A stretch of DNA of 64,000 nt from Candidatus Gottesmanbacteria bacterium RIFCSPLOWO2_01_FULL_43_11b (GCA_001780985.1 MFJV01000001.1:835497-899496), one strand, 5' to 3'. Positions 7,380 to 42,648 are shown, counted from the stretch's first letter. Notes: a model not told the origin generated them from the letters alone. Numbers and translations are program-made.

Positions 7380-8073
7380 ATCACACTGGAGAGATTACTG
7401 GAATAGATCCGATCACCAACCTGTCGTTACCCATGAGGAGTTGCTTGCCAATTTACTGGCAACAACATCTGTTAAGGGTAAAAAAATATTGGAGGTGGGA
7501 GCAGGAATGGGTGGGGACAGTATCTATTTATCAAAAAAAGGAGCACACGTCACCGTTGTTGATTTTACAAAAGAGGCGCTTGAAAAGATTAATGAAAATG
7601 CAAAAAAAGCAAAAGTAACGATAAAAACTGTTCAGGCTGATGCAAGAAACATGCCCTTTGCAGATAACACATTTGATATTATTTTTCATCAGGGATTACT
7701 CGAACATTTCAAAAATCCCAAAGAACTCCTCATTGAGCAGAAACGCGTTCTGAAATCCGGAGGGTATCTGCTTGTTGACGTACCGCAGCGGTATACCACC
7801 TACACAGTTAAAAAACATCTTCTCATGATATTAGGCAAGTGGTTTGCCGGTTGGGAGAGAGAATTTTCCGCAGGAGAATTGGAGCAATTATTAACAGACG
7901 AAGGGTATAGCGTTGTTCGTTCATACGGATGGGGCTATTATGGGAAGCTCCACAATATCCGTTTCGCTAAATTAGGAGCATGGTATGAAGCTATATGGAA
8001 GTTTATTGAATCGACCCGTATGAAGCTCTATCTCAACTGGTGTATAGGAGTTATTGTTCAAAAGATTGCATGA
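7360..8073 (+). CDS. class I SAM-dependent methyltransferase
   Basis: ILEVGAGMGGDSIYL (motif I) and DIIFHQGLLEHF (Methyltransf_11-like). Confidence 0.85.
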   Translation: MEKTSTKSHWRDYWNRSDHQPVVTHEELLANLLATTSVKGKKILEVGAGMGGDSIYLSKKGAHVTVVDFTKEALEKINENAKKAKVTIKTVQADARNMPFADNTFDIIFHQGLLEHFKNPKELLIEQKRVLKSGGYLLVDVPQRYTTYTVKKHLLMILGKWFAGWEREFSAGELEQLLTDEGYSVVRSYGWGYYGKLHNIRFAKLGAWYEAIWKFIESTRMKLYLNWCIGVIVQKIA

Positions 8074-8516
8074 AATATATTTTCATACTGACTCTTTTTT
8101 TAGTTTTTGCTACTCATGCTTTTGCTTACACTCTCCCTTACCCGTCGTACATGCCCGGACACAAGCTCTACAAAATTTCCCGATTTCTCGATCAGGCTAA
8201 AGCATGGTGGTATTGGGGAGTGAAATCAAAAATAAAGTATCATGCGTCTTTAGCTGACAAATATCTGGTTGAGTCAAAAACACTTTTTGAATATCAACAA
8301 TATCTGCTTGCGGTTGATGCACTCAGAAGATCAAATGAGCAGATTACGGCGATTTCTTCGAGATCAGGGGAACAGATGAAAGCACATACGGACGTCCTCG
8401 AACGCTTAAAACAAATGCTTCCGGAAGAATTTCTCTGGCAACCGGAAAAAGAGACACCTACACGATTGCCGCTACATATACTTCTTGACGAAGCGCTATT
8501 TATTCGAAATGAATAA
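8071..8516 (+). CDS. small secreted DUF5667-like protein (signal peptide + helical domain)
   Basis: Start MKYIFILTLFLVFATHAFA is a signal peptide; the ATG overlaps the upstream stop as ATGA. PGHKLYKISRFLDQAKAWWYW...ADKYLVES block is shared with the paralog at 30141..30689. Confidence 0.6.
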
Positions 8517-9597
8517 ACTTATAATTACTCTTTTGCTTTCCTGGATTGTTTTTTCTCTGGGAAATATTGTATTTAATCCTGTTAATCAATACTTTAACCG
8601 ATACTTCAACGAGAACGTCTATCAGAATTTAGAGCGTTTATACAATAATTCTCAATATAGGCAAAAGAATCCGATATCAGTTATCGCAGATGAAATTGTG
8701 TTTCGATACGCAGCAGCGGCATACATCCGCGGAGCAGACCCGATTCTTATAAACTCAGAACATACTCCATTAGGGAAGTACATGATAGGTTTGTCATTTT
8801 TATGGTTTCAAAACGATGGCGTTGCAATAGTTTTTTTTGCCGTATTATCGCTTTTTACACTCTGGCTACTTGGGAAACAGATATTTAAGGATACAACATG
8901 GGCATTAGTTCCTGTTGCGTTATGGGTAACTGAGCCGCTTTTTCAAAATCAGTTACGCGTTACGCCGCTACTGGATATTATTCAACTTCCATGGATTCTT
9001 TTGGCTTTGTATGCTTTTATAAAAAAACGATTTTTATTGACAGCGATATTTCTTGGCTTAGTTGCTGCAACAAAAAGTGTTGTCCCTTCAATGCTTCTCG
9101 TGTTTTCTTTTTTCCTTTTTTTTGCATTCAAGAATAAAATTCGTGAGTTCTTTCGCTTTGTGCCCTGGTTATTTATTAGTTTTTGTATCTTAGCTCTTTC
9201 CTATACAAGGACGTTTCTTAACGGTTACTCGTTGTGGGATTTTTTGGGTTTTCAAAAATGGATTCTCACTTACCAGCAGAGTAAACTCATTTTCCCGTTT
9301 TCTTTTTGGAAGCTTATGTTTCTCAACCAGTGGCAGACCTGGTGGGGAGATATGGCGGTTCACAAAGCGGAAGATTGGTTCTGGACCTGGCCGATTATCG
9401 TACTCGTTCCTTTTATTCTATTAATCATGAAGAGGAAAAAATTTAACGACGGTATGCTCGTTTTGGTTCTATGGGTTTTTGTTTACGAGATTTTTTTGTC
9501 TTCCGGGATAGTTGTAACCAGATTCCTCTTGCCGCTTATTCCTATTTTATATATCCTATCAGTGCAATTTGTCCGCGAAATTATTCATAGATCATGA
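8509..9597 (+). CDS. polytopic integral membrane protein, unknown function (possible GT-C)
   Basis: Start MNKLIITLLL overlaps the upstream stop by 8 nt. About 9-10 hydrophobic segments. No recognisable catalytic motif. Confidence 0.6.
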   Translation: MNKLIITLLLSWIVFSLGNIVFNPVNQYFNRYFNENVYQNLERLYNNSQYRQKNPISVIADEIVFRYAAAAYIRGADPILINSEHTPLGKYMIGLSFLWFQNDGVAIVFFAVLSLFTLWLLGKQIFKDTTWALVPVALWVTEPLFQNQLRVTPLLDIIQLPWILLALYAFIKKRFLLTAIFLGLVAATKSVVPSMLLVFSFFLFFAFKNKIREFFRFVPWLFISFCILALSYTRTFLNGYSLWDFLGFQKWILTYQQSKLIFPFSFWKLMFLNQWQTWWGDMAVHKAEDWFWTWPIIVLVPFILLIMKRKKFNDGMLVLVLWVFVYEIFLSSGIVVTRFLLPLIPILYILSVQFVREIIHRS

Positions 9598-10646
9598 TAT
9601 TTGCATACATCATCGCACTCGTTTTTTTAACTATTTTTAGTTTCGGCTTTATAGATGCAAATTTCTCGGTGAAAATACTTCCGGCTGTATTTGAATTCAT
9701 TCATTCAAACCGACCGCTGGCAACGTATCTTTATGTTGGGGCAGTAACGTATCTTTTTATTTTTTACTTTTGGATTTTGCGACAAAACAGAAATATTTGG
9801 AAATTGATTTTTATAAGTTGCGCTATTTTGTTTTTTTCATTTCCTGCATTTTCGTACGACATTTTCAATTACATGGCCACGGCAAAAGTTGCGTACTTAT
9901 ATAAAGAGAATCCATACGTAGTGATGCCTATTGAATTTCCGAATGAGCCGATGCTTTCTTTCCTTCATGCTGCCAACAAAGTCGCTCTCTATGGGCCGAC
10001 CTGGATTGCATTGACGTATATACCTCATATTATAAGCGGAGGGAACATACTCGTTTCCATCTGGGCCTTTAAAGCACTTGCCGCAATCTTTTATCTTGGT
10101 GTATGTTGGATTCTTTGGAAGTTGGGTGGCAACAGCGCATTAGCTTTTTTCGCATTAAATCCGTTGGTGATTACGGAGACACTCGTATCAGGCCATAACG
10201 ACATCGTTATGATGTTTTTTGGTTTACTTGCGTTTTACTTTGCAAAAGCGAAACGGTGGTGGTTAGGGTTATTTGTACTTGTTCTTTCGATATTTGTTAA
10301 AGGAGCAACAATTATTTTATTGCCACTTTATTTTTTGAATATTCCCTGGAATAAGAAGTGGTTATGGGCTGCAGCGGGTATGTTTATAGTATTTTTATTA
10401 ACTCCGCTACGAGAAGAACTATATCCTTGGTACTTCATTTGGCCGCTTACCTTTATTGCATTACTCTCCAATACCCATATATTACGGTATCTCTCATACG
10501 GATTTTCCATAGGTCTCCCGCTACGATTTGCACCGTTTATTTATTACGGAGATTGGAGTGGGGTAGTGCCGATCATTAAAAAAATAGTATCTTCCTTACC
10601 ACCTGCCCTTGCACTGTTTTTTTATGCGAAAAAAAGGAATCGTTAA
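9594..10646 (+). CDS. polytopic membrane protein, GT-C-like (DUF2029/GT87-like?)
   Basis: 350 aa, almost entirely hydrophobic. GHNDIVMMFFGLLAFYF..KGATIILLPLYF resembles mannosyltransferase-type GT-C cores. ATGA overlap with the upstream gene. Confidence 0.55.
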   Translation: MIFAYIIALVFLTIFSFGFIDANFSVKILPAVFEFIHSNRPLATYLYVGAVTYLFIFYFWILRQNRNIWKLIFISCAILFFSFPAFSYDIFNYMATAKVAYLYKENPYVVMPIEFPNEPMLSFLHAANKVALYGPTWIALTYIPHIISGGNILVSIWAFKALAAIFYLGVCWILWKLGGNSALAFFALNPLVITETLVSGHNDIVMMFFGLLAFYFAKAKRWWLGLFVLVLSIFVKGATIILLPLYFLNIPWNKKWLWAAAGMFIVFLLTPLREELYPWYFIWPLTFIALLSNTHILRYLSYGFSIGLPLRFAPFIYYGDWSGVVPIIKKIVSSLPPALALFFYAKKRNR

Positions 10647-12093
10647 TCTTACACTTATCATTTTGTTTTTTGTTTTTTCTTTGTGGCTCTTTGGAAAATC
10701 ATTCGGATACGAAAATGGTGAGTTTCGAATAGCAAGACATCAAGTGGGTGATTTTGGTCTGCATTTAGGGCTCATCAGGTCTTTTTCATGGGGTCAAAAT
10801 ATCCCTCCCCAGTCTCCATTCTTCCCGGGTCCCCCGTTACCGTATCATTACGCAACGGATATGGCTGCAGGACTTCTTGAGCGGGTGGGAGTTCGTATAG
10901 ATCATGCCCTTAACGGCATAAGCGTCATATTTTTTACTTTGCTTCTCTTTCTTATTTATAACTTTAGTAATTTACTGTTTGGCTATTCACCCATACAGTC
11001 ACTTATTGCGGTAGTACTATTCCTTTTATCGAGCAATCTCACATTCGTTACATTTCTAAAGCAGAGTACATTTGCCGAAGTATGGCGGCTTCCTGACTAT
11101 ATTTATAAAGGCCCGTTCGATGGATCTGTTATTTCAATATTTTCGACTCTTAACCCACTCCTTAACCAACGTCACCTCATCGTTGGGCTTGCTCTAAGCC
11201 TCCTTATTTTCACGCGTATCCAAAAGCAAAAAATTTCAACGATTGAGCTTATTTTACTTGGCATACTACTGGGAATTTTAACGAGAATTCACACACTCGT
11301 TGCCTTCGGAACCGCTATCGTTGTAACAGGCATGACGATTTACAAAAGCCGTTTCATGATTTTATTGTCTGTAGCTTTTCTTTTTGCACTGCCGCACCTC
11401 CGACTTTTTTTTACAAATGACTCTCGATCACTTGTCGATTTCTTTCGTCCGGGATTTTTAGCCGCCGCGCCGGTTACCATATATTCATGGTTAACTTTTT
11501 GGTGGCAAAACTTAGGATTGACACTTATTTTTCTACCCATAGGTGTTTTCCTTGCCAACAGTAAACAAAAGAGAGTGTTTTTTTCTTTTCTCCTTCTATT
11601 TATTCTCGCGAATATTTTTCAATTCAGTTACCGTATCGAGCACAATCATTCGCTCATCACAATGTTTTTAATTATTTCAAATATGTTTGTCGCATACGCG
11701 ATTATGCGTTTACCCAAAATATGGACAGTCATGTGTTTATTTTTTCTTACTGCATCGGGCATCCTCAATCTTATGGTCGTTAAAAATGATTTCCAATATC
11801 GTGTGGCTGATGCACCCAAGGATACGCTTATCTCCTGGATTTTAGAAAATACTCCAAAGGACTCTATTTTTCTTGCACCACAAAACCTCTATGATCCAGT
11901 TGTGCTTGCAGGGAGAAAAAACTTTTTCGGGGCAACATACTACTCTGAGGTCATGGGCTATGATATTGAAGCGAGACGAGAAGTAGCAGCGACAGGTAAA
12001 ATTGATGATGTGGACTACCTCATCTCCACGGAAAGGGAAGTTGACCGTGAACCTGTATTTACCAATGAAAAATATTGGGTATACAAACTATGA
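10624..12093 (+). CDS. polytopic membrane protein, unknown function (possible GT-C)
   Basis: Probable start MRKKGIVNL; the ORF-track Met at 10609 gives a longer overlap. Conserved-looking loop HLGLIRSFSWGQNIPPQSPFFPGPPLPYHYATD. C-terminal soluble ~100 aa. Confidence 0.55.
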   Translation: MRKKGIVNLTLIILFFVFSLWLFGKSFGYENGEFRIARHQVGDFGLHLGLIRSFSWGQNIPPQSPFFPGPPLPYHYATDMAAGLLERVGVRIDHALNGISVIFFTLLLFLIYNFSNLLFGYSPIQSLIAVVLFLLSSNLTFVTFLKQSTFAEVWRLPDYIYKGPFDGSVISIFSTLNPLLNQRHLIVGLALSLLIFTRIQKQKISTIELILLGILLGILTRIHTLVAFGTAIVVTGMTIYKSRFMILLSVAFLFALPHLRLFFTNDSRSLVDFFRPGFLAAAPVTIYSWLTFWWQNLGLTLIFLPIGVFLANSKQKRVFFSFLLLFILANIFQFSYRIEHNHSLITMFLIISNMFVAYAIMRLPKIWTVMCLFFLTASGILNLMVVKNDFQYRVADAPKDTLISWILENTPKDSIFLAPQNLYDPVVLAGRKNFFGATYYSEVMGYDIEARREVAATGKIDDVDYLISTEREVDREPVFTNEKYWVYKL

Positions 12094-13592: not shown

Positions 13593-14568
13593 AGTTCGCG
13601 GAATCGGTTCATATACAGACCAATTGATTAAGGCTTTAAAAGAATACAAAAGTAAACATTCGTATTCTTTTTTTACTCGAGGACAAAAAGTACCCGAAAG
13701 TGCAGATTTGGTCCATTATCCTTACTTCGATCCTTTTTTCTTAACATTGCCACTTATTAAAACTAAACCTACGGTTGTTACGGTTCATGATCTTATTCCT
13801 ATTGCATATGCAAAATATTTCCCCAAAGGACTACGAGGAGAGTTTAAATGGGAAGTTCAGAAACGTTCTCTTATGAAAGCAAAACGCATTATTACAGATT
13901 CGAAGGCTTCAAAGAATGACATTATAAAATTCATAGGATATCCGGAAAGTTACATCGATGTTGTGTACCTTGCGCCTCCGAAAACTTACCAAAAGATAAA
14001 AAGTAATATACAGCTGCCAAAACAATATGTTCTTTACGTGGGAGATGTAAACTGGAATAAAAATATTCCGGGTCTTATTGACGCATATTATATAATTCAA
14101 AAAAAATTCACTGATACAAAACTTGTTCTTGTCGGTAAACAATTCCTCAATACAACGATTAATGAAACACAAAACATTAATAATCTCATTCACAAATACA
14201 ATTTAGAAAAAAATGTTGTAATGCCGGGATTTGTTAAAGACGAGGATTTGCCATCAATCTATAGATCAGCGTCTGTCTATATACAACCATCATTTGCAGA
14301 AGGGTTTGGATTTCCAGTTTTGGAAGCCATGGCAAGCGGATGCCCGGTGGTTTGCACGAACGTCTCGAGCCTTGTTGAAATAGCAGGCCCTTCAGCTACT
14401 GTCAGTCCTAATACTCGTGATATTGCTTCAGGAATAACCAACGTATTAACGTTATCCAAAAAAGAACGGGAAGATATTGTGAAAAAAGGATTAGCTTGGG
14501 TTAAACAATTCACATGGGAAAGAACTGCAAAAGAGACAGTTACCGTTTATGAGAAAGCATTGGAATAA
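13549..14568 (+). CDS. GT4 family glycosyltransferase (Glycos_transf_1)
   Basis: EGFGFPVLEAMASGCPVVCTNVSSLVEIAG is the GT-B C-terminal donor-binding motif. Confidence 0.85.
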   Translation: MHIAIDVSPLESGHKVRGIGSYTDQLIKALKEYKSKHSYSFFTRGQKVPESADLVHYPYFDPFFLTLPLIKTKPTVVTVHDLIPIAYAKYFPKGLRGEFKWEVQKRSLMKAKRIITDSKASKNDIIKFIGYPESYIDVVYLAPPKTYQKIKSNIQLPKQYVLYVGDVNWNKNIPGLIDAYYIIQKKFTDTKLVLVGKQFLNTTINETQNINNLIHKYNLEKNVVMPGFVKDEDLPSIYRSASVYIQPSFAEGFGFPVLEAMASGCPVVCTNVSSLVEIAGPSATVSPNTRDIASGITNVLTLSKKEREDIVKKGLAWVKQFTWERTAKETVTVYEKALE

Positions 14569-15589
14569 TATTAAACCCATTTTGTTTTTGTACGTCGGTT
14601 GGCTGCTATTACTTATTTTAGTACAAAAAATAGCGCCAACACTCTTTTCGCTTCAAAGAGACTTTCTCGGCCCAATCTCTTGGGCAAATTTTGACGGGGT
14701 GCATTACTTAAACATTGCTAAAGCCGGATACAGACAGTATCTGGAGGCTTTCTTTCCGCTGTATCCGATGCTCATCGGGAATAGTGGGCCTATTTTTGCA
14801 CTTATTATTTCCCACATATCGTTTTTTATCGGTTTATTGTTTCTCAAAATGATTGGTGAACAGAAATCTCTTCCCCTTATTCTTCTTTTTCCGACGAGTT
14901 TTTTCTTTGCAGCTGTCTATCCGGAAAGTTTATACCTGGGTTTGGCAGCCGGAACACTCTATGCACTCTCGAAACAAAAGTGGGGATTGGTAGGAGTATT
15001 GGGGATGTTAGCCAGTGCAACAAAAATATTCGGTGTGTATCTTCTCATTCCTGCAATTTTAGAATACATTCCAACGAAGAAAAAAAGAGCAAGAGATATG
15101 ATTGCTATTGGACTTATCCCTCTCGGTTTAGTTGGGTTCATGGTGTATTTGTGGCGTAAGATGGGTGATCCGCTTGCGTTTTTTCACGTACAACCTATCT
15201 TCGGAGCAAACAGAAGCGGAGGAGAGTTAATTTTTCTCCCTCAAGTACTTTGGCGATATATAAAAATATTCATTACAGCTAATCCCGCGACGTTTCAATA
15301 CTCCGTGGCTGTTTTAGAGTTTGTTGCGTTCGTGTTTAGTGTCTATTTACTTTTTGTAGCTTGGAAAAAAATCAGAAAACCATATTTTTGGTATAGCCTT
15401 GCTGTCATAATAACGCCAACTCTTACCGGAACGCTCTCGTCATTTCCGAGATATTTGCTTGCCGCATTTCCTCTTTTTTTCGTGATTAATACATTCCCGA
15501 AGAAAATAAAATACGTTTTCACCGTAATATTTATACTTCTATTTGTTTATTTTGCCTCTGCCTTTTTGAGAGGATATTTTGTAGCATAG
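14549..15589 (+). CDS. PIG-V-like (GPI mannosyltransferase 2 family, GT76-like) GT-C membrane protein
   Basis: N-terminal loop WANFDGVHYLNIAKAGY matches the WDxxxYxxIAxxGY signature of the Mannosyltransf_2 family. About 9 TM helices. Confidence 0.65.
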   Translation: MRKHWNNIKPILFLYVGWLLLLILVQKIAPTLFSLQRDFLGPISWANFDGVHYLNIAKAGYRQYLEAFFPLYPMLIGNSGPIFALIISHISFFIGLLFLKMIGEQKSLPLILLFPTSFFFAAVYPESLYLGLAAGTLYALSKQKWGLVGVLGMLASATKIFGVYLLIPAILEYIPTKKKRARDMIAIGLIPLGLVGFMVYLWRKMGDPLAFFHVQPIFGANRSGGELIFLPQVLWRYIKIFITANPATFQYSVAVLEFVAFVFSVYLLFVAWKKIRKPYFWYSLAVIITPTLTGTLSSFPRYLLAAFPLFFVINTFPKKIKYVFTVIFILLFVYFASAFLRGYFVA

Positions 15590-22418: not shown

Positions 22419-23603
22419 ATGAGAATTTTATTTATTACCTCAACATTCCCACGGAGTATACACGATGATCAAGTTCCATGGCTGGCAGAATTCGTCCGTA
22501 AATTAAAAGAAAAGGGAGTACAACCGGTTGTTTATGCTCCTTCTTACAAAGGGCTTGCAACACATGAGTTTTTTGGCATTCCGGTTATCCGTTTCCGTTA
22601 CGGACCGAAAGAGCTGGAAATACTCACTCACGAGGAAGGGGCGATCTTTAAACTTCGTCAGAAGCCGTGGTTATTTATTCTTGCATTTTTTTATCTCTTG
22701 TTCGGAATCATCGGAATTTTCCGTCTCTCCCGTCACCATTCATTTGACGTTATTCATGTACAGTGGCCATTTCCGAACGGCATTTTCGGAATTGTTGCCA
22801 AGCGGTTGTTCCGAGCCAAACTTACCCTTACATTTCACGGAGCTGAATTTACTCTCGCTTCCCGCATTCCTCTAGGCGGATTTATCACAAAGACAATAAT
22901 GAAACAGGCCAACGCAATAATTGCAAACTCAACCTATACTAAAAATATGATTCAACACACCATACCCATGGATGTTTCTATTATTCCGTTTGGTTCCGCA
23001 ATTACGGGAACGACACAAGGCTATCATCAAGTACACAGGCAAGCAAAAGTGACGAATATTCTTTTTGTCGGACGATTTATCGAAAAAAAAGGTGTCACTT
23101 ATCTTATTGATGCAGCAGAAATTCTTCGTAAAAGACAGAAGTCGATTTCTCTTTCTATCGTCGGTTCCGGCGATCTAGCAGGGGAAATACGGAGTCAAAT
23201 TCATAGACTTGACTTAGACCAAATTATAAAAGTATATGAAAATCTCGATAAAGAGGAAATCGCTCAATTTTACAGGTGGTCAGACATTTTTGTGCTGCCG
23301 TCAATCGTAGACCGATGGAATGACACAGAGACCTTAGGCGTTGTACTTATAGAAGCAATGACTTTTGGAAAACCAGTTGTAGCATCCCGCGTTGGGGGCA
23401 TACCGGATGTTGTGAAACACAATAAAAACGGAATACTGGTTGCCGAAAAAGATCCGCAAGCGCTCGCTGATGCAATAGAGAAACTTATTCAGGAACCTGA
23501 ACTCCGCAGGAGGTTAGGAAGAAACGGACTGCAATTTGTGAAAAATCACTATAATTGGAAATCCATAATTGACAAAACAAGGCATCTTTATTTTTCACCA
23601 TGA
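22419..23603 (+). CDS. GT4 family glycosyltransferase
   Basis: VGRFIEKKGV..GSGDL.. and IEAMTFGKPVVASRVGGIPDVVKHNKNGILV. Confidence 0.85.
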   Translation: MRILFITSTFPRSIHDDQVPWLAEFVRKLKEKGVQPVVYAPSYKGLATHEFFGIPVIRFRYGPKELEILTHEEGAIFKLRQKPWLFILAFFYLLFGIIGIFRLSRHHSFDVIHVQWPFPNGIFGIVAKRLFRAKLTLTFHGAEFTLASRIPLGGFITKTIMKQANAIIANSTYTKNMIQHTIPMDVSIIPFGSAITGTTQGYHQVHRQAKVTNILFVGRFIEKKGVTYLIDAAEILRKRQKSISLSIVGSGDLAGEIRSQIHRLDLDQIIKVYENLDKEEIAQFYRWSDIFVLPSIVDRWNDTETLGVVLIEAMTFGKPVVASRVGGIPDVVKHNKNGILVAEKDPQALADAIEKLIQEPELRRRLGRNGLQFVKNHYNWKSIIDKTRHLYFSP

Positions 23604-25822
23604 AACAAAGAACTCATTTTATCCTCTTGTCTCTTGTTCTCCTCGCGTCTTTTTTAATTCGGACGATCGGCACGAAACCGGGATTTTGGGCTTACCATCC
23701 GGATGAACCTGCTACCTACGATTCCGCGATATCAATGATAATAAACGGTGACCTAAATCCGCGAAGATTTGATTATCCGGCGGGAGTGCCGTTAATCCAC
23801 ATGGCCGTTTTTCGGTCAATTTTTATTCCAATTAATTTTGTTAAATTAACCATTTCTGAGCCGCAAATGGTTATCTCAGCCCTCAAAAATTTTGAGGATT
23901 TTCCTAAAAACATAAGCGAGGAACTGTTTGGGAGACGCGGAGTAAATGCACTTTTTTGGTCACGCTACATTACTGCAGTCCTTGGAATGCTTTGCGTTGC
24001 TGCGATATACATGCTCTCCGCTATTTTATTCTCTCCTACTGTCGGACTCATAGCAGCATTTTTTCTCAGTTTTAATTATCTCCATGTTCTTCGAAGTCAT
24101 TTGGCTCTCACAGACATTCCCAACACTCTATTTACTCTTATTGCACTCATTGCAATCGCAAAACTTTTGAAGAAAGATTCACCCAAAAATTATTATTTAT
24201 CCGGCATAACCATCGGATTAGCATTCTCGGTAAAATTTCAGCTGTTCCTTATTTTTCCATACTTGCTTGTTCATCTTGTTTGGTCAATACGGAAAAAATC
24301 GTTTGCCAACTTTTTTCGAAAAGAAGTGTTCTTTTCAGCAATACTTGCAATCTTTACTTTTTTAATGATAAATCCATATCTACCGTTCCATTTAAAACCC
24401 GTACCTGTGGCCAGGCGAATTGATAGTTTCATTACAGCTAATGAAATAATAGCGAAGCGATACGCGTTTGGTTCCAACATATTTAATCCCTTCCCGATAT
24501 TTTATCTCTATAAATGGGGGATCGGAAAAGCATTGACGCTTTCAATTCTTGGTGGTGCTGCGTTGATGCTTTTTCAGTCACCGCTCCTTTTCTTTTTGCT
24601 TTTATCTATTATTTTTCCGTTCATGTACGCATTTGTGTACTACGGTGGGGCGGGCGCGGCATTTTATGTGCGTAATTTAGTTGCGATCGTGCCACTTCTT
24701 CTTGTTTTTTCTGCGTATTTCTATAGCAAATTATTTGCGTATGTGGGTAAAAGAGGGATATTGGTAAGTTTAATTCTTATTGGTGTTGCGTGGAGTCAGA
24801 TCACATCCTCAACAAAGCTAAGTTACTATTGGAGTAAACCGTGGTTATATATGCAAATGATTGATTGGGCATCCGATCATTTACCCAAAGATGCACGGTA
24901 CGAAGAAAGTTCAGGGATTGTTATGACGATTTTGAGAGATAAAGGTGGGTTCACTGATATCGACAATAGATGGGGGCGGGAGCAAATGAGCGTCGTATCC
25001 CTGGCTGAAATGGAAGAAGATGGTGCAGATTTCGGCATTCTTGTTTCTAATCAAATTCAAACTAGTTTTATCAGTTGGATGAATCCGTTAAGCTTTAGTG
25101 AGCTTCTTGATTATGATGATGTTTCTTTTAGTTTTCTCGATAACACCTATGTAGGACTATCCGTACATGAAATGCTTCAGAATAATGTTTATGAATTGCA
25201 CTATCCGATTTTTGTGCCGAATAACTTTATTTTTGTAACGAAGCTTCCGCTGAGTGTGGTTACACCTCTCGTGAGACACTACGCTTTCGAATTTAATGAA
25301 GCATCATCCATATGGGATGTAGATGGACTTACAGATAATGGAATGAGGGGTAAGTTTAGATGGAACGAAGGTAGCCTTATCATAGACGGAGCAGTTGGCC
25401 AAACAGCGCGTTTTACCTCACCAGTCTTGTCAGTAACTGAGGGAAAAACATATAAAATTATCGGAAGAGTGAAATATACCGATAACGTGCCAAAAGAGGA
25501 ACGGTCTGCATTTTTGAGAATAGACATGTATGCAAACAATCAAGAAGCGACTACCGAAGAAAAAGGTTCGCTCGTTACCGTTTCCGCACGAAGCTGGGGT
25601 GAACCCGGGTGGAAAGAAGTGAGTGTCCTGACGCCCAAGATTCCTAAAGGAATTAGTGTCATGAAAATAAGCTTTCAGACTCGAGGCAACAGTTCATACA
25701 AAGCATATCTTGATTCCGTGGAAGTTTGGGAAGTTAAACCTGGGGCGGAGCGGTACCCGGAAGTCCCTTATGTTCCCTATACCCTCCCACCACAATATTT
25801 TTACCCCAAGTCAGTTTTTTAA
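23600..25822 (+). CDS. GT-C (ArnT/PMT_2-like) glycosyltransferase fused to C-terminal beta-sandwich carbohydrate-binding-like domain, 740 aa
   Basis: N-terminal YHPDEPATYDSAI motif and about 12 TM helices. Soluble C-terminal ~300 aa (GKTYKIIGRVKYTD..FLRIDMYA..ISFQTRGNSSYKAYLDSVEVWEV) has a CBM4_9-like jelly-roll pattern. Paralog at 55871..58138. Confidence 0.75.
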   Translation: MKQRTHFILLSLVLLASFLIRTIGTKPGFWAYHPDEPATYDSAISMIINGDLNPRRFDYPAGVPLIHMAVFRSIFIPINFVKLTISEPQMVISALKNFEDFPKNISEELFGRRGVNALFWSRYITAVLGMLCVAAIYMLSAILFSPTVGLIAAFFLSFNYLHVLRSHLALTDIPNTLFTLIALIAIAKLLKKDSPKNYYLSGITIGLAFSVKFQLFLIFPYLLVHLVWSIRKKSFANFFRKEVFFSAILAIFTFLMINPYLPFHLKPVPVARRIDSFITANEIIAKRYAFGSNIFNPFPIFYLYKWGIGKALTLSILGGAALMLFQSPLLFFLLLSIIFPFMYAFVYYGGAGAAFYVRNLVAIVPLLLVFSAYFYSKLFAYVGKRGILVSLILIGVAWSQITSSTKLSYYWSKPWLYMQMIDWASDHLPKDARYEESSGIVMTILRDKGGFTDIDNRWGREQMSVVSLAEMEEDGADFGILVSNQIQTSFISWMNPLSFSELLDYDDVSFSFLDNTYVGLSVHEMLQNNVYELHYPIFVPNNFIFVTKLPLSVVTPLVRHYAFEFNEASSIWDVDGLTDNGMRGKFRWNEGSLIIDGAVGQTARFTSPVLSVTEGKTYKIIGRVKYTDNVPKEERSAFLRIDMYANNQEATTEEKGSLVTVSARSWGEPGWKEVSVLTPKIPKGISVMKISFQTRGNSSYKAYLDSVEVWEVKPGAERYPEVPYVPYTLPPQYFYPKSVF

Positions 25823-30140: not shown

Positions 30141-30689
30141 TTATTCCTCTTGGGGTTTCGGCGTAGAAAATTCAAGTTCGAGATTTTTTAATTCTGTCTC
30201 ATTCCTCTGAGAGAATTCCAATATTTTCTGTAGATCAGTCTGTGTATCCGCTGAAGTTTTGCCAATCACACCGATAAGCAATTGTTGATGGTATGGGTAT
30301 GCGTCATGGGCGCGTTTTATAATTATTGTATCGAGCGAACCGGATTCGTCCGCCATTCTCTTGATCTCGTTAACAAATTGTGTCATGTAGTGTTCTCCCC
30401 GAAATGCAGAATGGAGACCAACGGCATTATCGCCCAGTTGAATAACTTTAGCAGCGCCCGTCAGTTCTCTGTCAGCAAGCTCTATATACTTAAGCGCTCT
30501 TTTGGCGGAGTCTTTCGTAAATAGTAAGGAAAGTTTATCCCAGACAAGCTGGAGTTTATAAAACGAGTTATTGGGTAACAGTTTGACTTCAGGCGCTTGA
30601 TAGGTTTGAGGAGTTTGCGCAAAAGCGGCGGGCAAGCCGGAAAAATAGACAATACCGGCAAAGAGAATGAAAAGCATCTTGAATTTCAC
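30141..30689 (-). CDS. small secreted DUF5667-like protein, paralog of 8071..8516
   Basis: Signal peptide MKFKMLFILFAGIVYFSGLPAAFA. LPNNSFYKLQLVWDKLSL..AKRALKYIELADRELTGA block parallels the other copy. Confidence 0.65.
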   Translation of the reverse strand: MKFKMLFILFAGIVYFSGLPAAFAQTPQTYQAPEVKLLPNNSFYKLQLVWDKLSLLFTKDSAKRALKYIELADRELTGAAKVIQLGDNAVGLHSAFRGEHYMTQFVNEIKRMADESGSLDTIIIKRAHDAYPYHQQLLIGVIGKTSADTQTDLQKILEFSQRNETELKNLELEFSTPKPQEE

Positions 30690-36695: not shown

Positions 36696-37782
36696 GGATA
36701 GCGTAGGATACCATTTCTATTTGTTTTTTTGTAATAGCTAACCCGGAGGGCAGGTAAAGACCTCGGCGGGAAATTTCATCAGAAACAGGGAAACGCTCAT
36801 TGCCTAGATGATATTTACGAAGAGCTGGTTGGCAATGGAGCGGTATAAAAAAAGTTCTTGTATCAATGCCTTTCTTTTTGAGTTTGTCCATGAGTTCATC
36901 ACGGCTTATACCGAAAGAAGGTTCAATGAGAATAGAGTACATCCAGTAAACATTTCTCGCCCATGGTTTTTTGGGGGGTAATGAAATGCCTTCTATATCG
37001 GAAAGCAATCGATTATAGAGATCAGCCATCCATAACTTTTTTTCTATAAATTTATCTACTTCTTCAAGTTGCGCAAGGCCTAAAGCAGCCTGGAGATTGG
37101 TGAGTCTGTAGTTAAATGCGATTTCTTCATGGAGAAATCTTCGTTTTGGTGAGTGAGCAAGATCTTTGAGCATCCGTGCCCGAGTAGCAAGTTTTTCGTC
37201 GTCTGTAACAACCATGCCTCCCTCGCCGGTTGTTACGATTTTATTTGCGTAGAAACTAAAACAGTTGATTTTTCCGAAAGAACCAACCATTTTCCCTTTG
37301 TAAAGAGCCCCATGGGCTTCTGCTGCATCCTCCACAACTGCCAATTTGTACTTTTTTGCAAGAGAAATGAGAGGATCCATATCAACCGGGTGCCCATAAA
37401 TATGAACAGGTATGATCACTTTTGTGTGTTTGGTAATTTTTCTTTCTATTTTTTTCACATCAATGTTCCATGTATCCCGCTCCACGTCGACAACAACAGG
37501 TTTTGCTCCGGTATAACAGATTGCATCAGCGCAGGCGAACATTGTGTGGTCGGGAACAATTACCTCATCACCCGGACCAGTACCGAGGGTAGCGAGAGCC
37601 AGATGAAGTGCGGTCGTTCCGTTGGTTGTTGTGATTGCATATTTAACTCCGATAAATTTTGCGAATGCTTCTTCAAACTTAGTTATGTAGGAGCCGGCAG
37701 AAGAAATCCATCCGGTTTTGATGCAATCGGAAACGTATTTGAGCGCGTTTTTGGCAATCAACGGCTGATTAACGGGAATCAT
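36664..37782 (-). CDS. DegT/DnrJ/EryC1/StrS-family PLP-dependent sugar aminotransferase
   Basis: GDEVIVPDHTMFA..VDVE..DAAEAHG..CFSFYANKIVTTGEGGMVVTDD, with the catalytic Lys present (NK). Confidence 0.85.
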   Translation of the reverse strand: MIPVNQPLIAKNALKYVSDCIKTGWISSAGSYITKFEEAFAKFIGVKYAITTTNGTTALHLALATLGTGPGDEVIVPDHTMFACADAICYTGAKPVVVDVERDTWNIDVKKIERKITKHTKVIIPVHIYGHPVDMDPLISLAKKYKLAVVEDAAEAHGALYKGKMVGSFGKINCFSFYANKIVTTGEGGMVVTDDEKLATRARMLKDLAHSPKRRFLHEEIAFNYRLTNLQAALGLAQLEEVDKFIEKKLWMADLYNRLLSDIEGISLPPKKPWARNVYWMYSILIEPSFGISRDELMDKLKKKGIDTRTFFIPLHCQPALRKYHLGNERFPVSDEISRRGLYLPSGLAITKKQIEMVSYAIHEITRRRHRR

Positions 37783-38182
37783 GGTGGTCTAGGTATCTTT
37801 TTGCTTTTTCATAACCCGGATAGGGGCCTTGTTTCACTTCAAAAATGACTGTATCCTCGAGCATCTTAAATCCGTGTCCGCCTGCTGCTAAAAATATTTT
37901 ATCTCCCCCGGATAGCGTTACTTTGTGAACACGTTTTCCGTTTGGCGCATAGAGATCGACAATGAGTTTTCCTCTTTCAACCACTAAAACCTCCTGTGTT
38001 GCCCGTACGGTTTTTACCGGTTCATTATGCATATGCGGTCGTATAGTTTCACCGGACTTTTTAACAATCGTACCTATTTGGAATGGGGCAGTGGAAGGAG
38101 AGTAAAACGTGGTTTTAGAGGGAGTCTTGTTACCCCGAATAATAATTGCGAGTAACAGCCGACGGTAATAAATTTTAGACAT
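37769..38182 (-). CDS. small cupin-fold protein (possibly WbuC-like), no clear ketoisomerase motif
   Basis: About 137 aa from the internal Met MSKIYY. GETIRPHMHNEPVKTVRATQEVLVVERGKL..KIFLAAGGHGFKMLEDTVIFEV fits a generic cupin metal-site pattern. Sits immediately upstream of, and overlapping, the DegT gene. Confidence 0.55.
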   Translation of the reverse strand: MSKIYYRRLLLAIIIRGNKTPSKTTFYSPSTAPFQIGTIVKKSGETIRPHMHNEPVKTVRATQEVLVVERGKLIVDLYAPNGKRVHKVTLSGGDKIFLAAGGHGFKMLEDTVIFEVKQGPYPGYEKAKRYLDHHDSR

Positions 38183-39080
38183 AATCTTGTTTTTTTCGTG
38201 ACATCGATGTGACGAGTTCCGCAATAAGCCCTACGGAAATAAGCTGGACTCCGATGACCATGAGGAGTATGCCGGCAAGGAGTAACGGAATATGATGGCC
38301 AACACTTCCGGTAGTAACGCGTATATACGTAACATATGCGTTCATCACAAAACCGATAGAGGTAAGAAGAAATCCATAAAGACCAAAAAAATGAGCAGGC
38401 TTACCTTCGTAATGGGTAAGGAAGAGCACAGTAAGCAGGTCTATTACGGCTCTCCAGCTCCTTCCCAGACCAAATTTTGATTTGCCGAACTTTCTCTTTC
38501 GATGAGCAACCGGAAGTTCCGTAACTTTGTATTTAAGTTTCGCAGCAAGTATAGGGATAAACCGGTGGAGTTCACCATGAAGATTAAGGGATTTTGCAAC
38601 ATTTCCCGTCATGGCTTTGAGGCCGCAATTATAATCATGGAGCGGAACTCCTGAAAGAAACCGAGTTCCGACGTTAAATAGGTAGCTTGAAATTTTCTTT
38701 TCGACACTGTCTTTTCTTTCTTTCCGCCACCCAACAACCAGATCGTACCCGTCGTTAAGTTTCTCTATTAGTTTTATTATTTCTTTTGGATTATCCTGCA
38801 GGTCAGCATCAAGGGTGACGACAACATTCCCTTTTGCTTGTGAAAATCCGTATGCGAGCGCTTCGGACTTGCCAAAATTTGCGCGGAAGTGGAAAACGCG
38901 AACGTGTTTATTTTTCCGTGCAACGGATTCTAATGCTATTTTCGTTTTGTCAGTTGATCCGTCATTAACAAAAAGTATTTCATACGGTTCTCTTACGGTT
39001 TTGAGGATCGCGAAGAGCTCATCGGTTAGATGCGGAAGAGATTCCGCTTCATTTTTGACAGGAATAACAATACTTATCAT
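38175..39080 (-). CDS. GT2 polyprenol-phosphate glycosyltransferase (GtrB/ArnC/DPM1-like) with C-terminal TM anchor
   Basis: Start at internal Met MISIVIPVKNE. ILFVNDGSTDKT..VTLDADLQD..GLKAM, then two C-terminal TM helices (LLAGILLMVIGVQLISVGLIAEL). Confidence 0.8.
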   Translation of the reverse strand: MISIVIPVKNEAESLPHLTDELFAILKTVREPYEILFVNDGSTDKTKIALESVARKNKHVRVFHFRANFGKSEALAYGFSQAKGNVVVTLDADLQDNPKEIIKLIEKLNDGYDLVVGWRKERKDSVEKKISSYLFNVGTRFLSGVPLHDYNCGLKAMTGNVAKSLNLHGELHRFIPILAAKLKYKVTELPVAHRKRKFGKSKFGLGRSWRAVIDLLTVLFLTHYEGKPAHFFGLYGFLLTSIGFVMNAYVTYIRVTTGSVGHHIPLLLAGILLMVIGVQLISVGLIAELVTSMSRKKQDYV

Positions 39081-39130
39081 ATCGTGCTCGAGTATAGAGA
39101 AAACGCAAGGGCAAGTCAACGAATTGAGGG

Positions 39131-39973
39131 TTATTTTCGGGTTCGACCAATAAATAACCATCCAAGAGACACATGAAGAATACATGTCTCTAAGCCCACT
39201 GCGATAGCCCGTGTTACGGAAAATTTTTTAAGGAAATTAAGACCTTGAAGTACGTCTGCAACAACAACAATAACTTTTCCCCGTTCTTTATCCAAGCCGG
39301 ACATTTTATAGGATTTTAGGAAATCAAGCGTGATATCCTCAACAGTAAAGAAGTTCTGTACCATTTGACGAAACTGTTTGTAACTTGGAAGGCGAATATT
39401 GTGGTATGAGTCTCCTCTTCCTAACAGTCGTACGTAGCTGTCTGCAATTTTTGCGGGCAGATAAGACAAGAAGGGGAGTTTAAAATGCGGTTCAATCGGC
39501 CACCATTTATTTGCTGTGGTGATATGCAGTATACCGTCTTTTTTAAGTACTCTGTGTATTTCTTCGAGCATGCGCAACGGTTTATTTACGTGTTCAATAA
39601 CCTCAATTGATGTAACAATGTCAAACGTATTTGAGGGATACGGAATTTTTATCCCGTCGTATTTTTTTACCACTGCGGATATTCGAAGCAACCGCAACAG
39701 CTCCTTCGTTGCTTTTACCTCTCCGTCTCCCACATCGAGTGCTACGGAGCTAGGAAATGTTTGAGCAATTGCACTAAATGTAAGGCCGGTCCCGCAACCG
39801 AGATCCAGTACTTTTGCCCGTTTCGTTTTATACTGGAGGAGTGTATTGACAACTCTTTCTGCTTTAAGCGGTGCAACGCGGGAGTACCCGCGAGCCCAGT
39901 TTTGATTTTTAGCATACTGACTATATTTCCGAATATGGGTATAACTCACTGCGGGGGTTAATTTTACTCTCAT
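39131..39973 (-). CDS. class I SAM-dependent methyltransferase
   Basis: VLDLGCGTGLTFSAIA and FDIVTSIEVIEHV. Confidence 0.8.
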   Translation of the reverse strand: MRVKLTPAVSYTHIRKYSQYAKNQNWARGYSRVAPLKAERVVNTLLQYKTKRAKVLDLGCGTGLTFSAIAQTFPSSVALDVGDGEVKATKELLRLLRISAVVKKYDGIKIPYPSNTFDIVTSIEVIEHVNKPLRMLEEIHRVLKKDGILHITTANKWWPIEPHFKLPFLSYLPAKIADSYVRLLGRGDSYHNIRLPSYKQFRQMVQNFFTVEDITLDFLKSYKMSGLDKERGKVIVVVADVLQGLNFLKKFSVTRAIAVGLETCILHVSLGWLFIGRTRK

Positions 39974-39994: not shown

Positions 39995-41200
39995 ATGAGA
40001 CTGAATGCACTCATTTCTCTTATACATTCTAAAAAGGCAGCAATAGGCGTTATTGGCCTTGGTTACGTCGGTCTTCCGCTTGCTACGTTAATTGCCCGAA
40101 AAGGATTTCGCGTAACGGGTTTTGTACGCGATCCAAGTAAAATTAATCAAAAAAAAATACGAGTTGCTCACATAGATTCAGACGAACTTAATGAACAGGA
40201 TATATATATTATTTGTGTTCCAACCCCGGTATTCGAAAATAAAAAGCCGGATTTAGGTGCAATCAGAAGCGTTGCACAGCGGCTTTCCCTGGTGCTTCTG
40301 GATGGAAAGCTCATCATCAATGAGTCGACGGTTGCGCCGGGAACGACAAGAGAGGAGTTTGGATCGTTAGGAGGAAAATATTTTTTGGCATGTTCACCTG
40401 AGAGAGTAGATCCCGGAAATAAAGATAAAACTGTGCGAACCATATCTAAAGTTGTCGGCGGAGTTAATCCTGAGAGTTTAGCACTTGCCAAAGTACTCTA
40501 CGAAAAAGTTCTTGATGCACCTGTTGTAAGCGTTTCGTCTCTCGAGGCAGCTGAAATGGTCAAAATGCTTGAGAACACATACCGTGCGGTCAACATAGCC
40601 CTGGTCAATGAGTTTGCCAGACTTAGTGAAAAAACAGGACTTGATGTTGTTGAAATAATCGAAGCAGCAAAAACGAAATGGTCATACCATGCCCATTACC
40701 CGAGTGTCGGAGTCGGTGGTCACTGCATCCCTGTTGATCCCTGGTATCTTGTTGACTTTAGCAAAAAGAAAAACGTGAACCTCACCCTCATTGAACAGAG
40801 TTTAAAGGAGAACGATGCAATGGCACAGGTTGTCGCAGATAAAGTAATCTCTCAGTATAAAAAAGGAGCGACAGTTCTTCTGTATGGACTCACGTATAAA
40901 AAAGACGTCAAAGATATCCGTGAAAGTCCTGTTATTCGTCTGGCTAGGATTTTACAGAAAAACAATATTCGATTTGTGGCTTATGATCCGTTATTAAACG
41001 AACAGGAAATAAAAGCATTTGGTTTTACGCCGGGAAAACTTAAAACTTCGGATATTTTTATTGTCGGTACAGATCATAAACAACTTTCAGGGGATTTTAA
41101 AAGATGCGTAGACAATAATACAATAATTATTGACGGCAGGAATTTTTTCCGAATAAAGGTTGGCAAATCCGTTCTCGGGGTTGGTCGGTCGCTTGTATGA
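39995..41200 (+). CDS. nucleotide-sugar dehydrogenase (UDP-glucose/UDP-ManNAc 6-dehydrogenase family)
   Basis: N-terminal IGVIGLGYVGLPLA Rossmann motif. Catalytic GGHCIPVDPWYL. C-terminal UDP-binding domain. Confidence 0.85.
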   Translation: MRLNALISLIHSKKAAIGVIGLGYVGLPLATLIARKGFRVTGFVRDPSKINQKKIRVAHIDSDELNEQDIYIICVPTPVFENKKPDLGAIRSVAQRLSLVLLDGKLIINESTVAPGTTREEFGSLGGKYFLACSPERVDPGNKDKTVRTISKVVGGVNPESLALAKVLYEKVLDAPVVSVSSLEAAEMVKMLENTYRAVNIALVNEFARLSEKTGLDVVEIIEAAKTKWSYHAHYPSVGVGGHCIPVDPWYLVDFSKKKNVNLTLIEQSLKENDAMAQVVADKVISQYKKGATVLLYGLTYKKDVKDIRESPVIRLARILQKNNIRFVAYDPLLNEQEIKAFGFTPGKLKTSDIFIVGTDHKQLSGDFKRCVDNNTIIIDGRNFFRIKVGKSVLGVGRSLV

Positions 41201-42648
41201 AACCTCTCGTTTCCGTCATTATTCCCTCTTTTAATTCCGCATTGACCATCGGCGTTACCCTTATGAGTTTAAAAAATCAGACATATAAAAACACTGAGAT
41301 TATCGTTGTCGATAAGGGATCAACCGACCTAACGCAAAAAATCTCGGGGAAATTTACAAAAAATGTTTTCACTCACGGACCGGAACGGGCAGCACAAGTG
41401 AATTTTGGGGTAAGGAAGGCTAAAGGGAAATACCTTTACCGAGTAGACTCTGATTTTATCGTTGAACCGGAGGTTATCGAGCAGTGTGTAAAAAAATGTG
41501 AAGAGGAGCGTCTTGACGGAATAGCCGTGCATAATACATCCGCGGAGGGATTAGGTTTTTGGTCAGAAGTAAGGAAAGTCGAACGGAACACATATCGGGA
41601 CGATCCGCTTATTGTCGCGGTGAGATTCTTTACAAAAAATTCATGGAAAACTATCAGCGGATTTGATGAAACCCTGTTCGGACCCGAGGATTACGATTTT
41701 CATAATCGATTTGTCAGCTCCGGATTCCGGTGGGGGAGAGTAAAAGCAATCGAACGTCACCTTGGTGAGCCAAAAAGCATTAAAGATATTTGGAAAAAGC
41801 ATTTTTTTTACGGAAAGCAAATGGTTGGGTATTACCGCAAACATCCCCGTACGGCTTTATTTCAATTTAATCCTGTGAGAGTAAGTTTTGTCCGAAACCT
41901 TGGAGTCTTGCTTTCTTCTCCCACGATTTTTGTCGGGCTTATCATTATGCAGATAGTTAAGTTTACTGCCGGCGGTTTGGGTTTTCTTACAGCTGTCGTT
42001 GTACGTGATGAAAGTCGACTAAGGATTATGTCAACTAAGAGGAAAGTTATCCGATTATACCGCGGCTTAGGTTGGGTAACTTTTTTTACCCGGGTAAGAT
42101 TTTGGACCGGATCCTTCGAGGAGATGGACCGATATATTTCACCCTCAGGTACGATTCTCGATTTGGGTTGTGGCTATGGTATTTTTGCAAACTATCTCGC
42201 ACTTTCTTCTCCCCGACGAAAAGTAATCGGAGTTGATTTGGACAAAGATAAGTTGCGGTATGCCGATAGGGGTATAAAGAACGCAAAATTTCTCTATGGT
42301 GACGCTACGCGTATGCGTGTGCCAAATTTAAAAGGTATAACAATACTCGATGTTCTTCACCACTTAGATTCTTATAGCATGCAGGAAAGTCTGATTAAAG
42401 CATGTACTTCCATGCTTGTTAAGAACGGAAAACTCATTGTGAGCGAAGTTGACAGTAAACCCTTTTGGAAACTTATACTTGCAAGACTCGCGGATTCCCT
42501 GTTGTATCCGGGGCAACCAGTGTATTATGGACATCGCAACCGACTTTTCCCGCTTTTGCAAAAATATTTTGGCGCGGGTAATGTAAGGACATATACGCTC
42601 CATTACAACCCCTTTCCTCATAGGCTTTACATATGTCAAAAAAAATAA
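41197..42648 (+). CDS. bifunctional GT2 glycosyltransferase - TM segment - class I SAM methyltransferase fusion, 483 aa
   Basis: N-terminal VSVIIPSFNS..IIVVDKGSTD..DSD..EDYDF (GT2). Hydrophobic stretch in the middle (FVGLIIMQIVKFTAGGLGFLTAVV). C-terminal ILDLGCGYGIFANYL..ILDVLHHL (methyltransferase). Confidence 0.75.
   Translation: MKPLVSVIIPSFNSALTIGVTLMSLKNQTYKNTEIIVVDKGSTDLTQKISGKFTKNVFTHGPERAAQVNFGVRKAKGKYLYRVDSDFIVEPEVIEQCVKKCEEERLDGIAVHNTSAEGLGFWSEVRKVERNTYRDDPLIVAVRFFTKNSWKTISGFDETLFGPEDYDFHNRFVSSGFRWGRVKAIERHLGEPKSIKDIWKKHFFYGKQMVGYYRKHPRTALFQFNPVRVSFVRNLGVLLSSPTIFVGLIIMQIVKFTAGGLGFLTAVVVRDESRLRIMSTKRKVIRLYRGLGWVTFFTRVRFWTGSFEEMDRYISPSGTILDLGCGYGIFANYLALSSPRRKVIGVDLDKDKLRYADRGIKNAKFLYGDATRMRVPNLKGITILDVLHHLDSYSMQESLIKACTSMLVKNGKLIVSEVDSKPFWKLILARLADSLLYPGQPVYYGHRNRLFPLLQKYFGAGNVRTYTLHYNPFPHRLYICQKK

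Follow-up and report, generated by a model that had tools for sequence, protein, structure and literature searches.

A Candidatus Gottesmanbacteria glycan island encodes two PMT_2-type GT-C glycosyltransferases with a C-terminal jelly-roll related to CBM4/9/16/22 modules

The joining of a membrane GT-C glycosyltransferase core to a carbohydrate-binding module (CBM) is an established design. The C-terminal domain of EmbC is a lectin-like CBM (PMC3044687), and AftD carries three CBMs that bind long arabinans, with one of its three CBM-like domains judged unlikely to bind sugar (bioRxiv 10.1101/2019.12.22.885152). The founder of family GT136, ORF12 of Citrobacter youngae O1, is an undecaprenyl-phosphate-ribofuranose:O-antigen ribofuranosyltransferase with 11 transmembrane helices, an experimentally validated catalytic Asp (D31) and a dispensable C-terminal CBM whose ligand is the unmodified O-antigen backbone (PMC11127046), and in eukaryotic PMTs the carbohydrate-binding domain is MIR (PMC7759382). 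Here we describe two genes, copy A and copy B (Table 1), in a 64,000-nucleotide stretch of the genome of Candidatus Gottesmanbacteria bacterium RIFCSPLOWO2_01_FULL_43_11b (GCA_001780985.1 MFJV01000001.1:835497-899496; the whole stretch is called the window below), both of which very probably encode GT-C enzymes with an extracytoplasmic CBM-fold module. The original prediction for this DNA, made by a model from the sequence, had regarded such an architecture as unusual for the enzyme class, a claim that fails because GT-C enzymes with CBMs (EmbA/B/C, AftD and ORF12) or with the MIR domain (eukaryotic PMTs) had already been described. What is new is the lineage, which combines a PMT_2-type core, an α/β domain, a CBM4/22-like jelly-roll and a conserved tail.

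Both open reading frames (ORFs) were found as predicted, the start of copy B being ambiguous. Copy A is identical to the protein listed at NCBI as 'hypothetical protein A3A79_04825', and its start codon shares bases with the stop of the upstream GT4 gene (ATGA). For copy B no obvious ribosome-binding site precedes either ATG 55901 or TTG 55871; the ATG is where homology with copy A and the other family members starts, and it appears to be the better-supported start. Pairwise alignment, a check that the original prediction had itself proposed, matched the two proteins end to end in BLASTP (33% identity, 51% positives, 762 columns, E 2e-116), a resemblance far beyond chance; they are full-length paralogues. 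The paired peptides by which the two had been linked are all present in the translations, given here as copy A / copy B: YHPDEPATY / LHADEPTSY, GKTYKIIGRVKYTD / GQHYTVTGWLRNTE, FLRIDMYA / FLRIDFYADG, ISFQTRG / ISFQKKD, and YLDSVEVWEV / FVDDIEVYES. When the ORFs of all six frames in the window were searched with a C-terminal-region profile, these two alone were matched.

Copies A and B are GT-C glycosyltransferases of the GT39/GT83-like kind and belong to Pfam PMT_2, which bears out the ArnT/PMT-like core that had been proposed for them. PMT_2 (PF13231) scored 55.8 bits on copy A and 50.3 bits on copy B against a gathering cut-off of 26.1 bits, and PMT (PF02366) scored 43.4 and 32.8 bits, respectively, against a cut-off of 22.7 bits. 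The full-length structure of copy A predicted by AlphaFold from an alignment of 39 family sequences reached a pLDDT (predicted local distance difference test) of 88.9 and a pTM (predicted TM-score) of 0.89, and its Foldseek matches were GT-C enzymes, namely STT3, AglB, PglB, EmbA/B/C, AftD, ALG9, ALG12, Pmt4, and ArnT, with E values from 1e-8 to 5e-5 and a probability of 1.00. In the same 39-sequence alignment the Asp that follows the first transmembrane helix (D35) was invariant and E36 was at least 90% conserved, and Y59 and P60 of the F-D-Y-P-A-G-V-P-L motif were invariant or nearly so. We take HPDEP together with F-D-Y-P-A-G-V-P-L to be the counterpart of the DE...YFEKP (DE...EKPP) of ArnT and of the DE motif of PMTs.

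Taken naively, the helix count of the model is 12, which places the C-terminus inside. We set this topology aside, since it inverts the positive-inside rule; the expected bias was found in only 4/39 family members. When the short hydrophobic helix 146-157 and the amphipathic helix 160-167 are treated as re-entrant at the outer face, a choice on which the helix parity rests, 11 transmembrane helices remain, Lys plus Arg per residue becomes 0.171 in the inside loops versus 0.076 in the outside loops, and the bias is present in 39/39 members. Nearly all of the conserved polar residues then fall in outside loops (D35, E36, D58, Y59, N159, S166, H167, K212, Q214, N258, Y260, Y288, R358, and N359). 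Because of this charge bias and this placement of conserved polar residues, the C-terminal module is most likely extracytoplasmic and on the same side as the proposed catalytic loop, which is the orientation that the original prediction had marked as worth checking.

A single C-terminal β-sandwich of about 300 amino acids (aa) had been predicted, whereas the C-terminal ~335 aa of the copy A model resolve into an α/β domain, a β-sandwich and a short tail (boundaries in Table 1), and a separate AlphaFold model of residues 405-740 gave the same three parts (pLDDT 84.8). The region is ordered and is not low-complexity; disorder or low complexity had been named in the prediction as grounds for its own rejection. 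Several of the family's most conserved extramembrane residues lie in the α/β domain, where W415, W493, and P550 never vary and at least 90% conservation is seen at W423, E470, and K548. By analogy the domain is probably equivalent to the soluble domain of the GT-C enzymes ArnT, PglB and AftD. Its YKPWQAP motif, 76-87% conserved family-wide, is replaced by YPIFVP/YKPIAYP in copy A and its four closest relatives, and loss of the motif in this subclade suggests a changed acceptor site. The tail follows the family consensus P..PYIK.TIP...LFPNSI, in which P723 is 92% conserved, and was modelled with fair confidence.

The sandwich, with about ten strands in residues 554-714 of the copy A models, is a jelly-roll with a CBM4/9/16/22-type fold and remote homology to CBM_4_9-type modules. 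This grouping rests on three independent lines: fold matches in Foldseek, Pfam matches of relatives, and profile matches to PDB sequences. With the C-terminal model, Foldseek retrieved CBM16 (2zex/2zey, target TM-score 0.63), CBM4-2 (2y64, 4bj0), CBM61, CBM6, and CBM70, as well as the CBM-like/lectin-like domain of the Klebsiella phage K2-2 tailspike (E 8e-8, ~155 columns, root-mean-square deviation (rmsd) ~4 Å), and the full-length model also retrieved CBM16 and CBM22 (4xup/2wys). Pfam CBM_4_9 (PF02018) was reached by the C-terminal regions of 3/24 relatives and by 10/77 diverse sandwich fragments at E<=0.01 (best E 8.9e-6), with no other family recurring. Searched against PDB sequences, a profile of the 77 sandwich fragments matched the Clostridium thermocellum Xyn10B CBM22 (2w5f, E 0.0026) and, with E 0.024, the CBM4 from Thermotoga maritima Lam16A (1gui), and the alignment spans the conserved W...AP...t.sF and f..DDv.v strands, the pattern that the original prediction had picked out; profiles of the full-length family and of the whole C-terminal region found nothing useful among the same PDB sequences. 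Searched against Pfam and NCBIfam, the C-terminal regions of copies A and B themselves gave no match except a faint NTTRR-F1 on copy B (E 0.0014). Conserved sandwich residues are F565, W572, R604, S607, Y618, F638, R640, D642, S662 (invariant), R664, W671, P682, Q693, D705, and E711. The likeness to the CBM4, CBM9, CBM16, and CBM22 modules of glycoside hydrolases extends to a jelly-roll of ~150-165 aa and to the final 'f..DDv.v' strand, the difference being that those modules are found on secreted hydrolases and that of copies A and B on a biosynthetic membrane transferase.

As to function, we consider it somewhat more probable than even that copies A and B are polyprenyl-phosphate-sugar-dependent transferases whose surface-glycan acceptor is held by the CBM-like module; we infer that the module binds carbohydrate, that the donor is lipid-linked and that the acceptor is a glycan. 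A membrane-anchored ArnC-like GT2 enzyme would charge cytoplasmic polyprenyl phosphate with a sugar, and the lipid-linked sugar would then be flipped across the membrane. At the outer face the GT-C core would transfer the sugar to a cell-surface acceptor by way of the Asp that is invariant in HPDEP, in the loop after the first transmembrane helix, together with the conserved outside-loop residues N159/H167/D172, K212/Q214, N258/Y260, and R358/N359. The α/β 'soluble GT-C' domain and the jelly-roll would hold or select the glycan acceptor, as the CBMs of EmbC, AftD and GT136 ORF12 do.

A close parallel to such an enzyme is ORF12, which shares with copies A and B an ArnT-like GT-C core, 11 transmembrane helices (predicted for copies A and B), an Asp just after the first of these (D31 in ORF12, D35 in copy A), an Arg in the loop that follows the ninth helix (R349-Y350 in ORF12; Y356/R358-N359 in copy A), and a β-rich C-terminal CBM after the last transmembrane helix, periplasmic in ORF12. 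The partners of ORF12 are a lipid-sugar synthase of the GT2 type and a flippase, and the island around copies A and B has an ArnC-like GT2 and a Wzx-like flippase. Unlike copies A and B, which match PMT_2, ORF12 has no similarity to existing glycosyltransferase families, it lacks the extra ~140-aa α/β domain that they place between membrane and jelly-roll, and it comes from an enterobacterial host, whereas copies A and B belong to a monoderm member of the Candidate Phyla Radiation (CPR); a sequence relationship between ORF12 and the two copies was neither sought nor found. EmbA/B/C and AftD (GT53 and GT-C) likewise unite a GT-C core, a soluble α/β domain and one or more external β-sandwich CBMs; their donor is a polyprenyl-phosphate sugar and their acceptor a polysaccharide, and the full-length copy A model matches them structurally, albeit with Foldseek TM-scores of only 0.24-0.31. 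They differ in their length (1,040-1,400 aa), in having 15-16 transmembrane helices and several CBMs, and in belonging to other glycosyltransferase sequence families, and in AftD the chain re-enters the membrane after the soluble domains.

Several observations weigh against a glycan acceptor held by a sugar-binding module. The PMT_2 core fits a protein O-glycosyltransferase equally well, and copies A and B may be enzymes of the PMT kind which act on secreted or surface proteins such as S-layer proteins or pilins, with the sandwich playing the role of MIR and binding glycosylated or unfolded protein. PMT_2 and PMT are the sole curated family matches, NCBI calls the relatives 'glycosyltransferase family 39 protein', and Pmt4 is among the structural matches. 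Moreover, PMTs themselves join a GT-C core to a carbohydrate-binding lectin-like domain (PMC7759382), and Pmt1/2/4 (GT39), whose acceptors are Ser/Thr residues of proteins, resemble copies A and B in their Pfam PMT/PMT_2 membership, in the DE motif of the first outside loop and, given the predicted topology of copies A and B, in their 11 transmembrane helices and in the non-cytoplasmic position of the lectin-like domain. PMT_2 is, however, a broad family that includes ArnT-like lipid and glycan transferases, the MIR domain is a β-trefoil inserted in a luminal loop between the seventh and eighth transmembrane helices and not a C-terminal jelly-roll, and the locus is dominated by polysaccharide-type genes (a Wzx-like flippase, many GT2 and GT4 genes, and sugar-modifying enzymes); we therefore regard this explanation as unlikely, though of appreciable weight. 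The best full-length Foldseek matches, in turn, were not ArnT or PMT but oligosaccharyltransferases, with yeast and human STT3 and archaeal AglB at the top (alignments of 650-970 columns), and copy B has a faint NCBIfam archaeo_STT3 match (E 3e-6), as would suit an STT3/AglB/PglB-like enzyme that transfers a lipid-pyrophosphate-linked glycan en bloc to protein. The structural match reflects the shared GT-C fold, because TM-scores are only 0.34-0.41 and rmsd 12-17 Å, and the archaeo_STT3 match covers only 63 residues and scores 25.8 bits where the cut-off is 450. Pfam STT3 matched neither copy, and neither has a WWD motif (WWDxG) or even a WW pair; on these grounds we set STT3-type identity aside as extremely improbable.

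The carbohydrate-binding role of the jelly-roll may be questioned in the same way. The CBM4_9-like module of the original prediction stands with respect to fold and remote homology, but copies A and B have no Pfam CBM_4_9 match even at E<=1, the PDB matches of the sandwich profile are weak (E 0.003-0.02), and the Foldseek matches include domains of the same fold with functions other than carbohydrate binding, among them MAM, the Eph receptor ligand-binding domain, HpiC1 cyclases, gingipain adhesin domains, and Cry toxin domains. The jelly-roll may thus be a structural or protein-interaction domain (a wall spacer, an oligomerisation surface or a dock for envelope proteins) whose likeness to CBMs is that of the shared galactose-binding-domain-like fold, a possibility to which the doubtful sugar binder among the CBM-like domains of AftD and the dispensable CBM of ORF12 also lend some colour. 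The remote homology of the family profile is nevertheless specifically to CBM22 and CBM4, with CBM_4_9 recognised in members of the family, the Arg, Asp, Ser, Trp, and Gln residues conserved on several strands are typical of sugar-binding clefts, with R604, Y618, R640, D642, S662, R664, W671, and Q693 as the conserved positions that might line one, and the context is one of glycan biosynthesis throughout, so that we think a module without sugar binding quite improbable.

CPR bacteria (Patescibacteria) are uncultured, have reduced genomes and depend on contact with other cells. To our knowledge, the chemistry of their envelope is essentially unknown. A genome of ~1 Mb that spends at least 64 kb on surface-glycan synthesis makes a very large investment, and about 12 GT-C enzymes are encoded in this island, at least two and probably five of them with lectin-type modules. 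The predicted acceptor-binding module may therefore offer a handle on the CPR envelope, and the module, expressed on its own, might serve to probe the native glycan. The family adds a PMT_2-core lineage to the short list of GT-C/CBM fusions and leaves the accepted working of such enzymes unchanged, so that it should be useful for CPR envelope biology and no surprise to glycobiologists.

Table 1. Coordinates of copies A and B, their parts, and neighbouring genes in the 64,000-nucleotide window
Feature	Position (nt)	Strand	Remarks
Copy A	23600..25822	+	740 aa, ATG start; GT-C glycosyltransferase with C-terminal CBM-like module
Copy A, membrane GT-C core	23600..24832	+	Residues 1-411; 11 predicted transmembrane helices, N-in / C-out; PMT_2/PMT at residues 118-257
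Copy A, first outside loop, proposed catalytic	23666..23782	+	Residues 23-61; HPDEP and F-D-Y-P-A-G-V-P-L
Copy A, D35-E36 of HPDEP	23702-23707	+	Inside first outside loop
Copy A, extracytoplasmic (predicted) α/β domain	24833..25255	+	Residues 412-552, ~140 aa
Copy A, site of replaced YKPWQAP motif (YPIFVP)	25199..25219	+	Residues 534-540
Copy A, β-jelly-roll, CBM4/9/16/22-like	25256..25744	+	Residues 553-715, ~165 aa
Copy A, conserved C-terminal tail	25745..25819	+	Residues 716-740, 25 aa
Copy B	55871..58138	+	Paralogue of copy A; 755 aa from TTG 55871, 745 aa from ATG 55901
Copy B, membrane GT-C core	55901..57118	+	D38-E39 of LHADEP at nt 56012-56017
Copy B, α/β domain	57119..57547	+	Motif YKPWQAP kept
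Copy B, β-jelly-roll, CBM4/9/16/22-like	57548..58060	+	Counterpart of copy A sandwich
Copy B, C-terminal tail	58061..58135	+	~25 aa after sandwich
Class I S-adenosylmethionine (SAM) methyltransferase	55156..55884	+	Directly upstream of copy B
ArnC/PgfS/AglJ-like GT2	38175..39185	-	Full-length, E 4.7e-56, C-terminal transmembrane helices
WbuC-family cupin	37769..38224	-	E 6e-10; adjoins ArnC-like GT2
GT2-methyltransferase fusion	41197..42648	+	483 aa
DUF5667 protein	8040..8516	+	Among GT-C genes
DUF5667 protein	30141..30689	-	Among GT-C genes

When the C-terminal profile was run in an exhaustive HMMER search, with representatives counted as 50%-identity clusters, 876 passed E<=1e-3 and 161 passed E<=1e-30. 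Complete members are nearly all 700-790 aa long with the module at about 400-740, and because they share this length and module position the fusion is ancient and fixed. In contigs taken from one genome per species, the family was present in Levy-, Shapiro-, Davies-, and Woesebacteria and other Patescibacteria, and so far it has been seen only in Microgenomates. Copy A lies in a small divergent subclade whose closest members are 48-52% identical to it and 750-778 aa long, and copy B lies in the main clade, 44-49% identical to Levybacteria genes in three of the related loci (L003, L004, and L007). The duplication is old; tandem pairs of family genes occur in L004, L007, L017, and L018. A search of the literature on CPR GT39/PMT enzymes found none, and the lineage of copies A and B is not described in the searchable literature.

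Members of the family were also seen in metagenome-assembled genomes titled 'uncultured Gammaproteobacteria bacterium' (loci L001, L006-L010, L014, L016, L017, and L021), one of which, OZ246419.1, is a complete chromosome of 810,692 bp. Because a Microgenomates-type family is found there on a complete chromosome of ~0.8 Mb, the label is probably a placeholder or an error.

Five lectin-bearing GT-C enzymes had been predicted in the locus, copies A and B being a second family distinct from a trio of 661-678 aa encoded at 28101, 30769, and 32751. The distinction held. The trio proteins are mutual paralogues (35-49% identity) of a larger family with more than 600 matches, and BLAST links them to copies A and B through the transmembrane core only; homology between the C-terminal modules of the two groups was ruled out, with an hhalign probability of 1-2%. 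The count of five is less secure, for the CBM-fold modules of copies A and B are borne out while the discoidin assignment of the trio is weakly documented, PF00754 (F5_F8_type_C) matching 3/120 of the listed trio homologues and F5_F8_type_C_2 matching the protein at 32751 faintly (E 0.06). Five GT-C enzymes with lectin-type modules in the island, the trio included, are plausible.

The whole window is one glycan-biosynthesis island. Its GT-C-type genes number about 12 (at 987, 2429, 3859, 5357, 9594, 12075, 18964, 23600, 28101, 30769, 32751, and 55871), and it also holds 9 GT2, 6 GT4, 10 methyltransferase, and 4 DegT aminotransferase genes, together with sugar epimerases, dehydratases, reductases, a UDP-glucose dehydrogenase, a hexapeptide acetyltransferase, and a Wzx-like flippase. 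GT2 enzymes of the ArnC/PgfS/AglJ type with C-terminal transmembrane helices are the kind that makes polyprenyl-phosphate sugars for GT-C transferases, and the ArnC-like GT2 of Table 1 is a candidate for the synthase that feeds the GT-C enzymes of this island, presumably including copies A and B. In five related loci (L009, L011, L012, L013, and L021) a homologue of this GT2 with 47-50% identity is found no more than 5 kb from a family gene.

A soluble class I SAM methyltransferase of 203-251 aa lies directly upstream of 12/25 family genes in related loci (L001, L003, L004, L005, L007, L008, L009, L012, L013, L014, L017, and L018), as it does for copy B in the window and not for copy A. It usually overlaps the GT-C gene by 1-22 nt, and at least three methyltransferase subtypes occur in this position. 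The excess is marginal because methyltransferases already make up 30% of the neighbouring genes (binomial P ~0.05, with loci that are not independent), and we treat the pairing as a weak association, a lead only, having set aside the pair as a functional unit for these reasons. It is very doubtful, though conceivable, that a CPR-specific surface-glycan system exists here in which the upstream cytoplasmic methyltransferase, which recurs and in many cases is translationally coupled, makes a methyl-sugar mark or donor, the GT-C enzyme recognises or installs the mark outside, and the CBM reads the methylated terminus of the glycan. If so, a check-point logic like that of WbdD/Wzt-CBM in O-antigen export would be built into a GT-C enzyme, and the ~12 GT-C genes might provide a combinatorial surface-glycan code relevant to the attachment of episymbionts to their hosts. 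Within the window, the nearest relative of the stand-alone upstream methyltransferases in eight other loci is the methyltransferase half (residues 282-483) of the GT2-methyltransferase fusion.

Five island ORFs of 313-494 aa (10609..12093, 50565..52028, 49..990, 8485..9597, and 14549..15589) had no Pfam match below E 0.001, and an NCBIfam scan of those at 10609 and 50565 gave no match. They could be polymerase- or ligase-type proteins, and homologues of 50565..52028 were found near family genes in L002, L003, L004, L008, L015, and L016.

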